A DNA stretch of 64,000 nt. Source: Elusimicrobiota bacterium (lineage in GTDB: Bacteria > Elusimicrobiota > Elusimicrobia > F11). Made by a program: the position numbers and the translations under genes. Within the stretch, counting starts at the first letter, position 1, and each line of letters begins with the position of its first letter. Where the stretch lies: the NCBI GenBank assembly GCA_044221725.1, contig JBGAON010000001.1, positions 736,001 to 800,000 on the forward strand, in the 5' to 3' direction. The notes under the pieces were generated by a model, which was given only the letters and a program-made list of their open reading frames with translations, did not search any database and was not told the DNA's origin. This document shows positions 55,122-64,000 of the stretch, piece after piece.

Positions 55122-55156
55122 TTACAGATCGGTTACCTGTTCTTAAGAGATTCTTC
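55122..55156 (+). promoter_or_regulatory. 10-11-bp periodic direct-repeat box, copy 1
   Basis: TTAC-N7-TTAC-N6-TTAA-N7-TTC; TAAAAT at 55169 lies 6 nt before the ATG. Confidence 0.55.
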
Positions 55157-55180
55157 CGTCCTCTTCGTTAAAATCCCTGA

Positions 55181-57508
55181 ATGCGTTTTCCTTTTTTGAG
55201 GACCATTTGCTTTCTGATCACACCCGCCTATTTTTTTTCGAATGTTGCGTTTGGAGCCCTTACTGATTTTGACTCGTTGCAGCACTTAGGAAAACGAAAA
55301 GTCCTTTCTCCGTCTCGGCAAACGGGGCCAACGGTTTTCCATATTCAAGATGTTCACCACAATCCGGACGTGCAGCGAAATATTGCACGCACAATTGAAG
55401 AATTGAGACGCATTCGGAGCATTGATGCGGTCGCGCTCGAAGGCGCGTTTGAACCGGTTAACCTGTCCCATTTTCAAAAATTCACGGGTCGCGAAATCGT
55501 AGCGGCGGTCGCCGATCAAATGATGATGCAGAACGAAATTCCGGGGCCAATCTACGCGGCGTTGCGCGAGAAACATTTTCCACGGATCGTCGGGATCGAT
55601 GATCGCGAACATTACCGTTTGAACGTTGATGCGTATCGTGCTTCGCAGCACGGCGTACCATTTGCATTCCGAGAATTGGAAGCGGCGGAAAGCTGGCTTC
55701 AACAGAGAAAATCGAGCTTTTTCAATTCGAAACTTTCTTTGTTCGATTGCCACGTGCAAGCCTGTCGACGCCGAGGCCAACAATTCGATGACGTCAATTT
55801 GTTGTCCGCCTATTTTTCGCTTTGCAAAACCGAAGAAGAAAGGTGGCTGGTCCGAGCGTCCCGTAGAATGGAATTGGCGCGGAAGCTTGTGAGATTTTCG
55901 TTGCGAAGCGCCGAATGGCAGGAATACAAACGACTGTCTCGCGAATCCTTTCCGGCGCTCCGACCGCGGACTCTCGTACCGTTTGAAAAGTTTTACGAGC
56001 AAGCGGAACTTCGCGATGAACGCATGGCGCAAAATGTTTTAAAGGAAATTGCGCGTTCGAAGTTCACGACGAATAGCACGATAGCGTTGGTGGCGGGCGG
56101 TTTTCACACGTCGGGGATCGATCAGCGTTTGGTTGAGGCCGGTTGCCGCGTGGTCACTTTTGTTCCCAATATGCCAAAAGGCGGCACGAATGCCGGCAGT
56201 TCGTATTTGAACTTTCTTTTTCAGGACGACAAATCATTTTTGGCCGCGGAGCCACTGGCCCGTGAAACCGAACAGCTGATTTCAGAGCGTATTCTCGCAC
56301 GCGCTCTCCGTACGCGGTATCGATCGGAGGCGGTCCAACTGTTTCGAACGGTTCTCGGTCTCGGGACACGGTGCTGTATCGGAACGCTGCGAATCGCACG
56401 GCACTCGTTTGTGTTTGTCGGCCAACTTTCGAAAGCGTTTGTAATTTGGACCACATTTCGAGATAAGGCATTGCCGGACGAGCGAGTGTTCTCGGTTGAA
56501 ATTCCAAACGATCAATCGATTGATGCGGTTCAAAAATTGGCCACTACAACTGGAGACCAACTGGTCGATTGGTATGTGCGTACAATGAAACTATTTAATC
56601 CGAAAAACGATGAAGACCGTAAGCGGGTGCTCGAATGGATTTCGGCCCAACTTCGAAAGGCGGCGCAGTCAAAAATTATCTCTCCGTACGCGGTTATTGA
56701 TCATTTTTTTCATCCGATTGGCATTGCGGATCTCGATATTCTGTTGCCAAAGTATCCGTCGGCGCTGCGCGTTTTTTCTAAAGGATTCAAGAACATTCCT
56801 CTTTCCGGGAAGTTGTCCGACGAGGAATTTGTGCGGGAAGTTCTTGAGCATTTGATGAAGTTTCGAGTTCCGGGTAAACCGTTGAAGATTCTCGTCGCAG
56901 GAGGTGCCGGCGGAGGGAAAAGTACATTTGCAACGAATCTCGCCCGGGTGGCTGCATCGATCAATTTGAGGTCCAAATCAGAAAGCATGGATGCGTACCT
57001 TCTGTCGCGTCAGCAAAGACATGATAAAGGATTGGAAGGCTTGGCCATGTACGAACGCGACAAGGTCGGCGCCATGGTTGAGTCGCTTGCGAGCGAACGA
57101 CCGTTTTTCGGACGGACGGCCGACCGCAGGAAAGACATCAGGCGATACGAGGAAGTTGAAACCGACCCCAAGAATCTAGATCTCTATATTTTTGAAGGCG
57201 TTCTTTCGTTGGCCGACCAAGACTTACGAGAGGCATTCGACGTTGGAGTGTATGTCAACGAAAGCGACCAATATCGATTCCAAAATCGGCTCGACCGTGA
57301 TCCCGGTCTTAAAGGATACAGCGCGCTGATGATCGCGTGGACATTTGCTCAGACGCAACTCGACGAATTTCGTATGGCCCGTGACTCTATTCGGTACGCC
57401 TCATTGGTCGTCAAACCAATAAACCACGCCATCTACATTTCCAATCATCACTTGCATGATCTGAGAAAGGGGCCCGCGGAAATTCGCGGGGTACGGGTTG
57501 CCGCGTGA
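55181..57508 (+). CDS. Putative exported protein: uncharacterised N-terminal domain plus uridine kinase-like P-loop domain
   Basis: Signal-like N-terminus; IQDVH, VALEGA, VGIDD and GGFH motifs; C-terminal GGAGGGKST, SMDAY, FEG and RLDRD. Confidence 0.7.
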   Translation: MRFPFLRTICFLITPAYFFSNVAFGALTDFDSLQHLGKRKVLSPSRQTGPTVFHIQDVHHNPDVQRNIARTIEELRRIRSIDAVALEGAFEPVNLSHFQKFTGREIVAAVADQMMMQNEIPGPIYAALREKHFPRIVGIDDREHYRLNVDAYRASQHGVPFAFRELEAAESWLQQRKSSFFNSKLSLFDCHVQACRRRGQQFDDVNLLSAYFSLCKTEEERWLVRASRRMELARKLVRFSLRSAEWQEYKRLSRESFPALRPRTLVPFEKFYEQAELRDERMAQNVLKEIARSKFTTNSTIALVAGGFHTSGIDQRLVEAGCRVVTFVPNMPKGGTNAGSSYLNFLFQDDKSFLAAEPLARETEQLISERILARALRTRYRSEAVQLFRTVLGLGTRCCIGTLRIARHSFVFVGQLSKAFVIWTTFRDKALPDERVFSVEIPNDQSIDAVQKLATTTGDQLVDWYVRTMKLFNPKNDEDRKRVLEWISAQLRKAAQSKIISPYAVIDHFFHPIGIADLDILLPKYPSALRVFSKGFKNIPLSGKLSDEEFVREVLEHLMKFRVPGKPLKILVAGGAGGGKSTFATNLARVAASINLRSKSESMDAYLLSRQQRHDKGLEGLAMYERDKVGAMVESLASERPFFGRTADRRKDIRRYEEVETDPKNLDLYIFEGVLSLADQDLREAFDVGVYVNESDQYRFQNRLDRDPGLKGYSALMIAWTFAQTQLDEFRMARDSIRYASLVVKPINHAIYISNHHLHDLRKGPAEIRGVRVAA

Positions 57509-57566
57509 TAAAAAAGGTATTTTGGGGCTGCCTTTATCAAAAATACAGGCCTGAACGCTAAAAACG

Positions 57567-57602
57567 TTACAGAAATTTTACCGAATCTTAAGGCGAGCTT
57601 AA
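57567..57602 (+). promoter_or_regulatory. 10-11-bp periodic direct-repeat box, copy 2
   Basis: TTAC-N7-TTAC-N6-TTAA-N7-TTAA; shares TTACAGA, TTACC and TCTTAAG with copy 1 at identical spacing. Confidence 0.55.
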
Positions 57603-57680
57603 TCCGATGACGACAACACTAAATCCAGTTAAGCCCTGCTTCGCCGATGGCTACGCAGGGTTCGTTCGCAAGGAAAGCGA

Positions 57681-58916
57681 ATGAAAATTTGGTCTTTCAC
57701 ATTTGGTTGCAAAGTCAACCAATACGAAACAGAGTTGCTGCGGCACCGTCTAACGGGGCCGGGCGATATTCATGTGCAGAAACCCGAAGATGCGGATCTG
57801 TGTTTGATTAATTCGTGCAGCGTAACAGCCTTCGCGGACAAGGAATGCCGGCAGTTGGTTCGGAAAGTTTTGCGGTCAAACCCGACGGCGCGAACGATTG
57901 TGACCGGTTGTTACGCGACCCGCGCGCCGGAGGAGATTCAGAAGATTTCGGATCGCATCGAGATCTATACGAATCAGGAAAAGGACGAATTGCCGTCGTG
58001 TGTCGGGTTCGAAGTGAGCCAGCAGCCGCTCGGTATTCATCAGTTTGCGGGTCGGACGCGGGCGTTCTTAAAGGTTCAAGACGGCTGCCAGGCGCCGTGC
58101 AATTACTGCATTATTCCGACGGTGCGGCCGGACATGTGGAGCAAACCTGTGGACCAAGTTTTAACGGAAGCAAAAGCGCTCTTGGCGAACGGGTATCAGG
58201 AAATCGTTTTAACGGGGATCCGACTCGGGTTGTACCGGAGCAAAACGGAAGGGGGCAGCAAGCATGACTTGCTCGAACTCCTAAAAGCGCTGGTCGCGAT
58301 CCCCGGAAAATTTCGCATTCGGTTGTCGTCGTTGGAAGTGACCGAGGTGACGGACAAACTGATCGATTACGTCGCCCAAGAACCAAAGATTTGTCGGCAC
58401 TTCCACATCCCGATGCAATCGGGATCCACGCCGGTGTTGAAAGCGATGCAGCGCTGGTACAACGTGGATTTTTACAAAGAGCGCGTGCGCGCGGTGCGAC
58501 GGAAATTGCCGGACTGCGGTTTAACAGCGGACGTTATGGTCGGTTACCCGACGGAGACGCCTGAACAATTTGAAGAAACGGTCCGTAACATAGAGGAAAT
58601 GGAATTGTCGGGGCTGCATGTGTTTCGGTTCTCGGCCCGCGAGACAACAAAGGCCGCGCAGCTAAAACCGCTGGATCCGCGGATTGTGACCGAACGAGCG
58701 AAGCGACTCGGTGAGGTCGACAAAGTTTTAAGAGAGAATTTTTACCGCCGGTTTGAAGGGACGCAACGCGAAGTGTTGCCGGAACCGACGGGCGAGGCGT
58801 GGACGGACAACTACATTCGCGTGGACGTTCCGTTAAGCGAAGTCAAATTTGGTCTTTCACATAGACGGGTGGAATCGTCACAGTTCGTCGAAAAAATTGC
58901 ATTGGGGGCCGTGTGA
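57681..58916 (+). CDS. mtaB: tRNA t6A37 methylthiotransferase
   Basis: GCKVNQYE, INSCSVT and KVQDGCQAPCNYCIIP motifs; near rsmE. Confidence 0.92.
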   Translation: MKIWSFTFGCKVNQYETELLRHRLTGPGDIHVQKPEDADLCLINSCSVTAFADKECRQLVRKVLRSNPTARTIVTGCYATRAPEEIQKISDRIEIYTNQEKDELPSCVGFEVSQQPLGIHQFAGRTRAFLKVQDGCQAPCNYCIIPTVRPDMWSKPVDQVLTEAKALLANGYQEIVLTGIRLGLYRSKTEGGSKHDLLELLKALVAIPGKFRIRLSSLEVTEVTDKLIDYVAQEPKICRHFHIPMQSGSTPVLKAMQRWYNVDFYKERVRAVRRKLPDCGLTADVMVGYPTETPEQFEETVRNIEEMELSGLHVFRFSARETTKAAQLKPLDPRIVTERAKRLGEVDKVLRENFYRRFEGTQREVLPEPTGEAWTDNYIRVDVPLSEVKFGLSHRRVESSQFVEKIALGAV

Positions 58917-59257
58917 CCGAGTGTATTTTTTGTAAAATCGTCGCCGGCCAAATCAAGGCCAATGTGGTGTTAGACGACCAACGCGTGATGGCTTTCCGGG
59001 ATGTAAACCCCAAAGCTCCCGTCCACATACTCATCATTCCCAAGAAACATATAGAGCGGTTTTCAGTAATGCCCGAGAGCGATCTCGATTTGCTCGCGGA
59101 CATTCAACGCGCCGTTAAGAAAATTGCGGCTCAAGAGAAGATTTCAGAAAAAGGTTTTCGCTTGATCACAAACAACGGGAAGGATGCGGGTCAGACGGTT
59201 GATCACATGCATTTTCACATGTTGGGCGGCAAGGCAATGTCCTGGCAGCCCGTATAA
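58913..59257 (+). CDS. hinT: Histidine triad nucleotide-binding protein
   Basis: CIFCKI and HMHFHMLGG motifs. Confidence 0.93.
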   Translation: MTECIFCKIVAGQIKANVVLDDQRVMAFRDVNPKAPVHILIIPKKHIERFSVMPESDLDLLADIQRAVKKIAAQEKISEKGFRLITNNGKDAGQTVDHMHFHMLGGKAMSWQPV

Positions 59258-59278
59258 AAAGGATGGTGATGTTTCACT

Positions 59279-59479
59279 GTGGTTTTAGTTAAGTTACGAG
59301 ATAACGAAACAATCGAAGATGCTCTCCGCCGCTTCAAACGCGAATGCGAACGAAACGGAATTATGCAAGAGATCAAACGTCGAGAGTATTTCGAATCGCC
59401 CGCTGTTCGGAAAAAACGAAAAGCGGCCGAAGCGCGACGCAAATTAAAGCGTCGAATGATGCGGCAGAAACGGCGATAA
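59279..59479 (+). CDS. rpsU: 30S ribosomal protein S21
   Basis: ALRRFKR...EIKRREYFESP motif. Confidence 0.95.
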   Translation: MVLVKLRDNETIEDALRRFKRECERNGIMQEIKRREYFESPAVRKKRKAAEARRKLKRRMMRQKRR

Positions 59480-59509
59480 ATACCTCACAATAAATCTAGA
59501 AAAGCAGCA

Positions 59510-59554
59510 CGAAACCCGCGTTCCAGAGGTGAAGCCAACGGAATGCGGGTTTCG
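59510..59554 (+). terminator. Stem-loop between rpsU and dnaG (possible partial terminator)
   Basis: 15-bp stem CGAAACCCGCGTTCC/GGAATGCGGGTTTCG; weak U-tract. Confidence 0.5.
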
Positions 59555-59570
59555 CGTTCTAAGAGAGAAT

Positions 59571-61379
59571 ATGTTCAACCGAGAGCAAATTGATCAGGTG
59601 CGGTCGCGTGCCGACATCGTCGAAGTGATTCGCGAATATGTTCCGTCGCTGAAAGCGTCGGGCCGGTCGGTAAAAGGGTTGTGTCCGTTTCATAGCGAGC
59701 GAACGCCGTCATTTTATGTGCATCCGGAAAAGGGCTTGTTCAAATGTTTCGGGTGCGGCGAGTCGGGCGATGTGATCGCGTTTATCTCGAAGATGGAGCA
59801 GTTGACGTTTTCGGAAGCGTTGCGGCTGCTGGCGGAACGCACCGGCGTGCGATTGGAAGAAGACAAATTTCAGCAGAAAAGGGAACCCGAAGGAATTCGC
59901 GAAAAGGTTTACCGGGTTCTTGAAGCCGCATCAAAGATTTACGAAGACCAGTTGTGGGACGACCGATTGGGGCAGCCGGCGCGGTCGTATTTGGATGAAC
60001 GATTTATTTCGGACGATACGCGGCAAGCGTTTCACCTGGGATTCGCGGCGCACACCGGTGGCGGGGTTTTTGAAACGCTGGTCAAGAAAGGTTTTGCAAT
60101 AGAGTTGTGCCAACAAGCGGGGCTTGTGGCGCGGTCGAACAGCGGTCGGTTTTACGATCCCATGTTCGGTCGACTGATCTTTCCCATATTTGATTCGTTC
60201 GGGCATGTGATTGGATTCGGCGGTCGCGTGCTGCCACAAACCAAGAAACATTTCCTGGGCGGCGACGTTGAAGAAGACAAAGGTCCAAAATATTTGAACT
60301 CTCCGGAAACACCGGTGTTTTCTAAGGGGAAGTCGCTGTACGGACTTTTGCAGGCGAAACAAAGTATTTTGGCCTCTCGTCGCGCGGTGATTCTCGAAGG
60401 ATACATGGACGTGATTGGCGTGCATCAAGGCGGCGTGACAAACGCCGTGGCAACACTCGGAACCGCGTTTACCCGTGATCATGCGAAAGTACTGAAGCGT
60501 TACGCGAGCGACGTTACGGCGTTCTTCGACCCGGACGCGGCCGGCGAACAAGCCGCGATGCGTAGCTTGGAGCCGATGATTCAAGAAGATTTTTATCCGC
60601 GCGTTGTCATGACAGACGAAACCGGCGACCCCGACGAGATCATTCACGAGAAAGGCAAAGAGTTTTTTGAACAGCTGATTGAAAAGGCACCGGACTTCTT
60701 GGGGTTTGTGGAGCGCGTAACGGGCGCAGGAAAAGACGCTCCGTTAGATAAGAAGTCGGAGGCGGCGATGAAAGTGTTGGCGCTGATCGCGCAAACACCA
60801 AATGAAATTTTGAAGTCGGAATGGACGGCGCGGTTAGCAGCGGATCTGGGGCTGCGTGTGGAATCGCTCCAGGAACAATTAAAAAAGAAAGCGGTGGCCC
60901 GGTCGGTGTTGAGCAGCACGCCGGCGCCGAAGCCGATAAAAAAGGAACGAACGTTCCCGTCGGCCGAAGAAGAGATTTTGGTTTTGCTGATGAGCGAGCC
61001 GCGGTTTTTAAAAGAAACAGAGTTGCGAGCAGAAGATTTCACAACGGAACGCGAGCGGCGGCTTTTCGCAAAGATGTCGGAACAATTTTTGAATACCGGG
61101 GCACTGTCAATCCCAAAATTGGTGGACGACGTGACCGAAGCAGAAAAGGACTGGGTGGTTCGAATGTCGCTCGATGAGCACGAGTTTGAAGACCCGGCCG
61201 ATCGTTACAATCAGTTGGTCCGCAGCGTACGCTTAAAAAAAGAAAAGCAACGCCTGCAGGAGCTAAGTCGCAGCATTGCCGCGGGAACCGCGGCGATGGA
61301 TGTACAAATGGAATACAAGGATTTATTGCGCCGCATCAAAGGCACAGCGAGCGACGCGAAGGGAATGGTGACGAAATGA
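59571..61379 (+). CDS. dnaG: DNA primase
   Basis: CPFH..CFGC zinc finger, [13 protein letters not shown] and TOPRIM DPD motifs. Confidence 0.96.
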
Positions 61380-63109
61380 TCCAACAACATAACAAGTCCA
61401 TCATCGACAACGACGTGTTGATGAAAGGGCTTATTACGCAGGGCAAAGAAGCCGGGTATATCACGTATGAGGAAATCATGCGCCGGCTGCCGGAAAACAC
61501 AACTCCGGAAGACTTGGACAATTTCTTCGGGCAGCTCGAAGAAATGGGCATCCAAGTGTTGGAAGCCGAAGATTCGGGCCGCAAGCCGGCCGCCTCGGAA
61601 GGCGCGCCGCAGCCAGAAGTCGAACTCGATACGCAAAATTCCATCCGCATGTACCTGTCGGAAATGGGGCGGGTGCCGCTGTTAACGCGCGAACAAGAAG
61701 TGACGCTGTCGCGAAATATTAAGGAACACGAAAAAGATCTGCGCCTGCTGGTGCTTCAGTCGCCGATCACGCTCCGTGAAATCAGCAACTGGCAGACGCT
61801 GCTTGAGCAAGACGAAATGACGCCAAAAGAACTCATGCCGCGCGGTCGCAAAACGTCCGCTGAGCTCAATCGCATGAAGCTCAAAGTGAAGCAGGTCGCC
61901 GGGTCCATTCAGAAGAGCGAGAAAGTCATTAACAACTTGGACGAGAAACTCCAAGCGCCGAACTTGTCGATCAAAGCGAAGATGAAGTTGCAGTTGTTGG
62001 CCGATCAAGAGCGCAAGCACATCGTTAACGAAATTATCAGCTTGAACTTAAACCAAGACAAAATCAAACGTCTGACGAACAAGATCAAAACGATTGCTTT
62101 GAAAATCCGTGAGTGTGAAGACGAGCTCGAACGCTACGAAAAGCGGCTTAATATGCCGCACGCGGAACTCCAGGCGATCTACAACAAAGTGCTCGCGAAG
62201 AAAGTAACGCCGTCCGCCTTCAAGAAACTCACCGGTTACACGCTGACCGGTATCGAGTCGACGATGGAGAACATCAAAAACGTGGAAAACCGTCGCACGC
62301 GCATTTTGCAGGTGCTGCCGGTCACGCGCGACAACATCATTGACTTGGATGTGAAGATTCGCGACTTGGAAGAAGCAATTCTCAAAGACAAATTGAAACT
62401 CATTCGCGCGAACCTGCGCCTTGTGGTTTCGATTGCGAAAAAGCACGTCGGTGCATCGAACTTGGAATTACCGGACTTAATTCAAGAAGGGGGGCTGGGA
62501 CTCATCAAAGCCGTTGAGAAGTTCGAATGGCGTCGCGGTTTCAAATTCTCGACCTACGCAACCTGGTGGATTCGCCAATCCATCAATCGCGCGATCGCGG
62601 ACCAGGCTCGCACCATCCGCATTCCGGTGCACATGAAGGAAATTATTTCGAAACTCACGAAGGTAGCCCGCAAATCGCGTCAGGAATTGGGTCGCGATCC
62701 AACGCTCGAAGAATATTCGAAGGCGCTGCGTCTATCGATGGACAAAGTGCGCGGCATTCTGCGAATTATGCAGGACCCGGTTTCGCTTGCGACACCCGTC
62801 GGTGAAGAGGAAGATTCGTCTCTCGAAGAATTCATTGAGGACGAGGCCAGTTCGGAACCGTCCGAAGGTGCACAGGATTTCCTGCGGCACCGCGAAGTGG
62901 AACGCGCGCTTTCGACGCTCAGCGAACGCGAAGCTCAGATCATCCGCTTGCGGTTTGGTATCGGCACGGGTTATCCGCGCACGCTCGAAGAATTGGGCCG
63001 CATCTTCAACGTGACCCGCGAACGCGTTCGTCAAATCGAAGCGAAAGCAATCCGCAAACTGCGCCACCCATCGCGCAGCCGGGTGCTGAAAGAATACTTG
63101 GACAATTAA
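61376..63109 (+). CDS. rpoD: Primary sigma factor sigma70
   Basis: Region 1.1; [31 protein letters not shown] and TRERVRQIE motifs. Confidence 0.97.
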
Positions 63110-63115
63110 GGAAGA

Positions 63116-63232
63116 CCCCACCCAACCCTCCCCATTGACGAAGAATGGGGAGGGCCCACTTTCCTACGCACTCTGCACAGCAACGCAGTTTTTTCCTCCC
63201 CATGTCTCCTCAATGGGGAGGGTAGGGTGGGG
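63116..63232. repeat. Composite palindrome, family B copy 2
   Basis: Same arms as 34725-34850 with a different spacer. Confidence 0.85.
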
Positions 63233-63244
63233 AAAAAGTTATCC

Positions 63245-63288
63245 AACCCCTCGTGAAATCACCTGATTTTACGAGGGGTTTTGTTTTT
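63245..63288 (+). terminator. Rho-independent terminator after rpoD
   Basis: AACCCCTCGTGAAATCA/TGATTTTACGAGGGGTT hairpin followed by TTGTTTTT. Confidence 0.8.
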
Positions 63289-63323
63289 CAGGGCTTCTTA
63301 ACGTGATCTTAATGCGCCCTTAA
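63287..63323 (+). promoter_or_regulatory. 11-bp periodic direct-repeat box, copy 3
   Basis: TTCA-N7-TTAA-N7-TTAA-N7-TTAA (CTTAA three times). Confidence 0.55.
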
Positions 63324-63349
63324 TAAAAGTACAGTTATATACGTTGGAT

Positions 63350-64000
63350 ATGCGCAATACCCTCGGTGTTTTCATCGCGTTCGTGTACTTTTTCGGCAAC
63401 GTGGTTCTGGCGCATTCGGCAGAAGTAAATTTTTGGCGCGAACGTCAAAAAAAGCAAACTCCACCCGAAAAAAACGAGGTTCAACTTGCGGCGTTGCCGG
63501 CCTCCCTGCCGGTGGGCCGGGACAACCCCGCCGACCTTCTCCGCCAAATACCCACGCTCAGCAAAACGTTCAACGCCATTTCAGAAAACGCGCTTCCTGA
63601 AAAATTTAAGCCGTCCCACGTTCCGGCCGACCTTCGCCCAGTTCTTGAACGCATTCCGACAAACGCCGGCACCATCAAGCAAGTAAGCATCGCGCCCACC
63701 GACAAATCGATGGTCGTGTTGCTGCAGGACGTGCACATGAACACCGAAGCGCAGGGAAATATTGCCGAGATCGTAAAAGCGATGCGCGTGCCGGTCGTTG
63801 CCGTCGAAGGGGCGGAGGGACCCTTCAATTTTTCGGATTTCGAAAATTTTAAAGACGGAAAAATAAAAAAGGCGGTTGCCGATTCTTTTCTGCACCAGAA
63901 CCTGATATCAGCGCCAAGCTATGCTGGTGTGTTGAGCGAGAAAGGAAAGCTTCAGCTTGTTGGCGTGGATGACGCCGACCGCTATCAGGCAAACGTAAAC
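63350..64000 (+). CDS. 5' part of a putative exported protein paralogous to 55181-57508 (runs off the window)
   Basis: Hand-translated open frame: MRNTLGVFIAFVYFFGNVVLAHSAEVNFWRER...LLQDVHMNTEAQGNIAEI...VAVEGAEG...VADSFL...VGVDDADRYQANV. Confidence 0.8.
   Translation, partial: MRNTLGVFIAFVYFFGNVVLAHSAEVNFWRERQKKQTPPEKNEVQLAALPASLPVGRDNPADLLRQIPTLSKTFNAISENALPEKFKPSHVPADLRPVLERIPTNAGTIKQVSIAPTDKSMVVLLQDVHMNTEAQGNIAEIVKAMRVPVVAVEGAEGPFNFSDFENFKDGKIKKAVADSFLHQNLISAPSYAGVLSEKGKLQLVGVDDADRYQANVN

Follow-up and report, generated by a model that had tools for sequence, protein, structure and literature searches.

A predicted Tiki-fold head shared by leader-bearing proteins with variable cargo in Elusimicrobiota: a candidate motif-guided processing system

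Introduction

Polymorphic toxins, and MARTX toxins with autoprocessing domains, join a conserved carrier to variable cargo across a boundary motif, with exchange of cassettes. Here we describe a family of comparable layout, represented by two genes in a 64,000-nucleotide stretch of an Elusimicrobiota genome (contig JBGAON010000001.1, positions 736,001 to 800,000; hereafter the window). Gene 1 and gene 2 each encode a signal-peptide-like leader, a shared N-terminal domain, which we call the head, and different C-terminal enzymes, which we call cargo. On balance, we somewhat favour the reading that the head is a peptidase dedicated to processing: it would act on a short L-[R/A]-[P/Q] motif and so prepare enzymes to be delivered, perhaps to the inside of a host or prey cell. 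The family differs from polymorphic toxins and MARTX in its mostly metabolic and regulatory cargo, its Sec-type leader and the existence of a probably trans-acting form; no immunity genes were seen, although no search was aimed at them. It combines a conserved N-terminal module, variable C-terminal cargo and many paralogues, the combination that characterizes polymorphic effectors.

In its logic the family also recalls the PEXEL/plasmepsin V/PTEX system, which, in the available portion of the source (PMC10096305), comprises a signal peptide, a short downstream motif, a dedicated protease and unrelated cargoes. The two show no homology; the present family is bacterial and has another motif and another protease class, and its cleavage and translocon are hypothetical.

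The giant proteins of Omnitrophota, the Archaeovorins, are similar in joining a leader to membrane hairpins and mixed cytoplasm-type enzymes, and the available text of the two preprints (bioRxiv 10.1101/2023.11.21.568195 and 10.64898/2026.06.07.730766) reports no identifiable domains in their N-termini besides C39/S8 peptidases. Archaeovorins are defined by a length above 30 kaa (thousand amino acids), a SecA-like domain and a type II secretion system (T2SS)/Tad locus, whereas the members described here measure 775–8,881 amino acids (aa) and are dispersed; a SecA-like domain is absent from the members in the source genome and was found in long frames of four relatives. The term ‘tiki’ does not occur in the main text of either preprint, the supplements with domain catalogues lying outside that scope, and the literature searched, bioRxiv supplements likewise excepted, yielded no published description of the head family or motif. 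Huge proteins of Elusimicrobiota and Omnitrophota are called poorly characterised in the available part of one study (PMC11573180), and the processing and site of action of such giant or long proteins are an open puzzle, for which leader, processing head, boundary motif and tail would form a shared, testable grammar.

Results and discussion

Two genes share a head of predicted Tiki-like fold

The preliminary description of the window had listed collinear motifs in the two frames (YFFSNV/YFFGNV, IQDVHHNPDVQRNIA/LQDVHMNTEAQGNIA, VALEGA/VAVEGA, VADQ/VADS and VGIDDREHYRLNV/VGVDDADRYQANV), all of which are present, and the N-terminal parts of gene 1 and gene 2 match each other far past chance (phmmer E 1.7e-32 against 22,846 frames). 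The LVAGGFH motif and C-terminal kinase domain that it assigned to gene 1 were both found, the latter at residues 570–723 (PF00485, E 4e-8; uridine kinases of the PDB, E 1e-6). Gene 2 is likewise genuine: completed from the source genome sequence (G000), its frame continues past position 64000 to 3,280 aa. Pieces of gene 1 occur difference-free in DNA runs from two other studies, and the gene is therefore not an assembly artefact; RNA contigs span parts of it, which are not able to show transcription.

An EreA/ChaN/TIKI layout had been suggested for the shared domain, and both predicted fold (for TIKI, a core of parallel beta-strands with helices on its flanks) and residues bear this out. The AlphaFold model of the head has a predicted local distance difference test (pLDDT) value of 88.8, and EreC and BcR135 take the first five places in Foldseek (E 1.5e-4 to 9e-3). 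VIA-align Z-scores were 9.2 for EreC, 8.7 for ChaN, 8.5 and 8.4 for BcR135 and BcR136, 7.8 for HopBA1 and 6.8 for PMT. Residues of the D-x-H, E, R and GxFH positions (D24/H26/E54/R245/H276) are invariant in 26/26 paralogues of the source genome, are kept in 137–140 of the 140 top-scoring homologues from elsewhere and are also intact in stand-alone heads. By order and motif they agree with the RRSP catalytic set (E3900/H3902/E3930/H4030; PMC6254334) and with EreC (E47/H50/E78/R261/H289; PMC7979712), as given in the available portions of those papers.

Curated models recover little of this similarity. ChaN PF04187 matches 4/26 heads, one of them over the cut-off, across the last ~50–80 positions only, and the architecture differs from that of ChaN proper, a heme-binding lipoprotein of one domain. 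TraB TIGR00261 of NCBIfam matches 1/26 at E 0.008, and a profile of the head found nothing relevant among PDB sequences. Because fold and residues match while the Pfam and NCBIfam models fail, the head as modelled belongs to the TIKI/EreA/ChaN superfamily and stands outside every curated family, so that it corresponds to no characterised enzyme family of fixed architecture. The head resembles TIKI/TraB-PrgY-GumN, ChaN and Ere proteins (EreC 6xcq, BcR135 2rad, ChaN 2g5g, HopBA1 5t09, RRSP and PMT C2) in fold and, as far as the available accounts describe them, in the succession of acidic-x-His, Glu, Arg and late His. It differs from them in having Asp for the first-position Glu, a long helical insertion, and a distribution as a repeated N-terminal module or as the stand-alone partner of motif-bearing proteins. 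The head may have hydrolase activity, as peptidase or esterase.

Twenty-six paralogues carry different cargo

The source genome comprises 2.82 Mb in five contigs and is 94% complete. Gathered by phmmer and one hidden Markov model round over its frames, the family numbers 26 paralogues with frames of 775–8,881 aa, which add up to 181,779 nt and occupy 6.4% of the sequence. Past the head, just 5/325 paralogue pairs have any stretch in common, and cargo has a Pfam match at E ≤ 1e-3 in 14/26 members and none in 12/26. The matched cargo comprises PRK/uridine kinase (gene 1), two PP2C domains with FHA (gene 2), GH18 together with hexokinase in one member, and phosphorylase, starch synthase, 2-hydroxyacid dehydrogenase, adenylate kinase and GGDEF in others. 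Further members carry WD40 (two members), HD with adenylate kinase and dehydroquinate synthase, MBL/beta-CASP, or sigma-70 with a Ser/Thr kinase; a metallophosphatase match lies below the Pfam cut-off. The family is thus the dispersed modular one that had been proposed, and not two copies alone with the same C-terminus; the reading of a shared carrier domain with variable enzymes is supported.

Within gene 2 the order is leader, head, KLFLAP boundary, PP2C, Rce1-like membrane modules, FHA, PP2C and a tail ending ..RRLIDSQA; its head residues D127, H129, E153 and D207 lie in the window, and R469 and H493 past it. Such membrane modules occur in degenerate form in 7/26 members, with F..aH and H..YN present and EExxxR not intact, and PF02517 (CPBP/Rce1) gave two matches, both under the cut-off and both within one member. 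Zincin-like (I/L)xHE(L/M/G)xH motifs recur in the cargo of C2:161450, C3:353780, C3:449527, C3:541933 and C4:150091 (contig:position in the source genome). Together, the zincin-like segments and Rce1-like modules could serve further cutting of the polyproteins.

Of the 140 outside homologues 20 were scanned at E ≤ 1e-8; six of these add new types of cargo, and the other 14 gave no match. Relatives fall into 21/40 genomes with 15–41 family matches and 19/40 with zero; phylum-wide, 50/151 genomes match, and 9,681 50%-clusters do so at E ≤ 1e-3. All loci in named genomes (78/78) are from Elusimicrobiota, the Atlas clusters are from Elusimicrobiota and Omnitrophota, and homologue names include Endomicrobiaceae. 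A midpoint-rooted FastTree of 70 heads intermixes the paralogues of the source genome with heads of its relatives, and the expansion is therefore older than the genus.

Split loci pair stand-alone heads with motif-bearing neighbours

In three Elusimicrobiota genomes, five stand-alone heads (frames of 567–623 aa) adjoin headless leader proteins with LRP or LAP right behind the signal. This motif was noted before it was tested on new loci, and the Q variant was added after a metagenome scan whose queries were stand-alone heads, with a consequent bias toward that form. The scan gave 86 head matches in 79 loci: 37 stand-alone, 27 fused (one of them, L155, wrongly assigned) and 22 cut off. The stand-alone form also accounts for 117/118 proteins of a homologue set, in which 12/15 organism-named rows are Omnitrophota. 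Omnitrophota-type loci encode the head as a separate gene of ~510 aa. It often follows a giant gene, for which one cluster recurs in 13 loci and one example has a SecA P-loop domain, as well as pilZ, present in 11 loci. This context is a further likeness to the Archaeovorins, for which the available text of one preprint (bioRxiv 2023.11.21.568195) also gives a giant gene and pilZ. The split form, a stand-alone head beside motif-bearing neighbours, is new here.

A downstream gene was present for 31 of 34 distinct stand-alone heads, and 21/31 of these genes encode a signal with L[RA][PQ] within 35 residues, vs 24/442 leader-bearing proteins of the source genome and 0/10 opposite-strand genes. 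Fused proteins carry the same motif in 21/27 cases, 40–95 aa past GxFH and after a variable linker, and among close relatives conservation stops at K-L-F-L(88/120)-A(65)-P(52). The boundary reads KLFLAP in gene 2 and, in degenerate form, FLAAEP in gene 1. A search for headless clients in the source genome was set aside, its 24 background motif matches looking like chance.

Eleven long headless neighbours were picked as complete frames. All of them (11/11) contain phosphofructokinase (PFK), aldolase, GAPDH, PPDK, PGK, TIM or FBPase, and 10/11 lack a membrane helix after the leader, with PFK beginning at residue 73. Loci L121–L173 (for example L138:11444-16855 and L139:11442-20669) are Omnitrophota-type operons of signal-peptide-bearing multi-enzyme proteins that span much of glycolysis/gluconeogenesis, namely PFK, aldolase, TIM, GAPDH, PGK, PPDK and FBPase. 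The head tree places three fused heads within groups of stand-alone heads; fusion or fission has therefore happened more than once. Two stand-alone heads stand in tandem or near tandem at L132, L136, L137 and L111, which suggests paralogues with different motif specificity.

Taken together, it is fairly probable that the head recognises and cuts the motif, in cis or in trans. A non-cutting head is unlikely, although it has real arguments: it would bind the motif as a chaperone, adaptor or modifying enzyme (ester or acyl chemistry, anchoring) and assemble a surface or periplasmic complex. The superfamily includes non-proteases in the available accounts (ChaN as heme binder, EreC as esterase, PMT without the catalytic set), EreC and BcR135 are the best fold matches, and a catalyst would not have to be supplied anew with every cargo, as the head is in the fused genes. 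On the other hand, binding alone would hardly require the constancy of the five catalytic-position residues across the 140 homologues and stand-alone heads, and the motif lies at the limit of conservation, within a linker that was modelled with low confidence. Less likely by far, to the point of near-exclusion, is a head that is itself the effector, an RRSP-like protease on a host protein with the cargo as passengers. RRSP and HopBA1 are effectors of the same fold, as far as the available accounts go, but effectors are usually the variable part, and here it is the head that is conserved and that occurs as a single gene in operons beside genes bearing the motif.

Leaders, tails and the side of the membrane

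The export leaders suggested by the preliminary description were predicted by a hydropathy and charge scan, with a net positive n-region in 25/26 members and a hydrophobic core; the leader of gene 1 ends in the family type Y/F-x-x-x-N-x-A-F/W-A. At the other end, a C-terminal helix ending in Ala is a family feature: 21/26 members end in this residue, compared with 159/1,693 of the other long frames (p 4e-17), often with Arg at −7. The Ala end recurs in 32/45 complete proteins of relatives, in 21/30 scored Endomicrobiaceae-type proteins (of 46) and in 78/140 homologues, incomplete frames included. Each of the four Ala codons and each of the three stop codons occurs there, which rules out the tail as a DNA-level site, and a long shared C-terminal domain was ruled out by clusters of ≤6 among 104 tails. 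The tail may resemble ssrA-type degrons.

Membrane topology bears on the reading that these are ordinary inner-membrane proteins, with the periplasmic head as a sensor and the enzymes in the cytoplasm of the producer. Of the Ala-ending homologues scored, 72/73 have at least one predicted helix, and hairpin counts ahead of some cargo could be odd. Gene 1, however, has no predicted helix downstream of the leader, three further paralogues lack one between head and cargo, the first PP2C domain of gene 2 and the HD domain of C4_575421 precede any helix, and the headless clients are nearly all helix-free. The source genome moreover retains separate housekeeping PPDK, PGK, TIM and GAPDH, and we regard this explanation as very improbable.

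A further alternative is that the cargo is processed and kept, working in the periplasm or on the surface of the producer on metabolites of lysed or tapped prey. No delivery machine co-distributed with the family was found among the SecA copies and Tad ATPase profiled, GH18, phosphorylase and glucan enzymes could work outside, and the Omnitrophota preprints, in their available text, favour cell-wall degradation. Sigma-70, HTH, GGDEF, beta-CASP RNase, Ser/Thr kinase and PP2C/FHA instead have cytoplasmic macromolecules as targets, and retention by the producer seems to us rather unlikely.

Preferred route and the points that weigh against it

Action of the cargo in another cell is a plausible but tentative component of the processing-and-delivery reading, held because nucleotide- and DNA-dependent enzymes lie on the exported side in helix-free members like gene 1. 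After Sec-type export via the leader, the head would recognise the motif and cut at or near it, in cis where the two are fused and in trans where the locus is split, much as Tiki trims secreted Wnt and plasmepsin V cuts PEXEL. Once released, the cargo, which includes kinases, phosphatases, a sigma factor, GGDEF and glycolytic enzymes, would then work in the cytoplasm of the other cell or at an open junction with it, because it needs ATP, PPi, GTP or DNA; the conserved tail may be a handle for a second delivery step, and the genes would spread as cassettes into slots marked by a four-repeat element. A still broader scheme, which we consider possible and rather doubtful, is that Elusimicrobiota and Omnitrophota share a hitherto undescribed, motif-licensed export route, analogous in bacteria to PEXEL/plasmepsin V, in which a Tiki-fold peptidase cuts an L-R-P tag that follows the signal peptide and enzymes are threaded by the C-terminal helix into host or prey.

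If this were true, host or prey metabolism would be taken over by delivered whole enzymes (glycolysis, kinases, phosphatases and sigma factors), and glycolytic enzymes, if exported, would suggest metabolic parasitism of a new kind. The motif could serve to list the exported repertoire of both phyla, and the stand-alone enzyme of ~510 aa with a putative 40-residue substrate offers a small handle, since both could be produced in a laboratory strain.

Several points speak against processing and delivery. Cleavage, export and destination are inferred and none was observed. The fold Z-scores are modest, and unrelated methyltransferases rank between the superfamily matches from 8.8 downward. Intact residues do not name the reaction of the head, because PMT and ChaN exemplify a fold that need not be catalytic and EreC acts as an esterase. 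The strict motif is missing in 10/31 downstream genes, of which seven have LR-x or FRP and three nothing, and the 31 rows are not independent, several being close kin and one counted twice. Gene 1 (LAAEP) and Endomicrobiaceae-type members (ALA/TLQ) have degenerate forms of the motif. When AlphaFold was applied to a fused head together with its linker and LAP motif, residues 456–495 had pLDDT <50 and no sign of docking was seen. Cargo of some members could face their own cytoplasm, because most members have predicted membrane helices. As to machinery, no consistent second copy of SecA tracks the family, and accessory SecA was rejected as a candidate. Finally, within family f16 the copy number is low in the smallest genomes and highest in larger ones: most genomes of 1.5–2.1 Mb hold about 23–45 candidates, and genus g45 (1.1–1.3 Mb) holds 2–13 or none (8/19 positive). 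Larger Endomicrobiaceae are putatively free-living in the available part of PMC11257099, and the smallest f16 genomes may, on smallness alone, be the endosymbionts of that study.

The Tad/Flp pilus was also rejected as the machine: its ATPase query is unmatched in the seven family-positive genomes of families f4 and f10, and the ATPase is present in 19/19 family-negative ones. T2SS and type IV pilus loci are present. A split Tad/Flp locus lies right after a four-gene family cluster (C2:207431-212764; RcpC, ATPase and T2SSF), its other half being a pilin-like gene and a 256-aa secretin at C1:298218-299236.

A four-repeat element and a variable chromosomal slot

The element TTAC-N7-TTAC-N6-TTAA-N7-TTAA precedes 23/26 paralogues with at most three mismatches, against none in a shuffled genome, and 59/81 family genes in relatives. 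Families f1 and f10 have its exact form in every genome (14/14), and none of the 26 others has it, seven family-positive ones included. Gene 1 interrupts dnaJ-rsmE-mtaB and is flanked by two copies (Table 1). Among nine relatives examined, rsmE abuts mtaB in six and two loci are uninformative; the empty site holds a perfect element in G006 and one with three mismatches in G002, and a same-genus genome has another tail-bearing gene in the slot, ending ..FRIVGKSA. The bracketing elements, the empty sites and the different gene fit cassette exchange at the element, by which the gene 1 slot would be swappable.

Table 1. Coordinates of the features in the window
Feature	Coordinates	Strand	Remarks
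Four-repeat element before gene 1	55122..55157	+	2 mismatches
Gene 1	55181..57508	+	775 aa; leader, Tiki-like head, middle, kinase and tail
Predicted signal peptide, gene 1	55181..55258	+	..YFFSNVAFG; from charge and hydropathy only
Tiki/EreA/ChaN-fold head (predicted), gene 1	55280..56215	+	D57, H59, E87, D140, R278, H309
Middle region, gene 1 (aa ~345–569)	56215..56887	+	no Pfam, PDB or usable Atlas match
Degenerate head/cargo boundary motif, gene 1	56237..56257	+	F-L-A-A-E-P; family consensus K-L-F-L-A-P
PRK/uridine-kinase-like P-loop cargo, gene 1	56888..57349	+	Walker A GGAGGGKST at 56900
C-terminal tail, gene 1	57470..57508	+	..EIRGVRVAA-stop; family type R(-7)...A(-1)
Second four-repeat copy, gene 1-mtaB gap	57567..57602	+	perfect; direct repeat bracketing gene 1 with the first copy
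Variant four-repeat element before gene 2	63287..63323	+	3 mismatches
Gene 2, 5' part	63350..64000	+	3,280 aa whole; frame open at window end, stops at G000:C3:809192

Other long frames and the region upstream of gene 2

An 18,016-aa frame at C2:219180-273227 of the source genome resembles the family in its leader, has a weak match to the four-repeat element and adjoins an OmpR-type regulator, recognised by eye, which is a candidate regulator of the element. At C5:256702-281811, after two AcrB-like genes, an 8,370-aa frame has the family leader, the upstream element and an ..ELVKSQA tail, with no Tiki-like head, clear motif or Pfam match found in it. A set of very long exported proteins distinct from the 26-member family (C3:407277, C5:215673, C3:233798, C5:508494 and others) ends in ..K(I/M)(A/V/G)(I/V)(L/V)(K/R/N), a tail presumably like the C-terminal domain of type IX secretion (T9SS-CTD). 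Within the window, the gap between rpoD and gene 2 contains a long imperfect inverted repeat at 63110-63290 (CCCACCCAACCCTCCCCATTG...CAATGGGGAGGGTAGGGTGGG).

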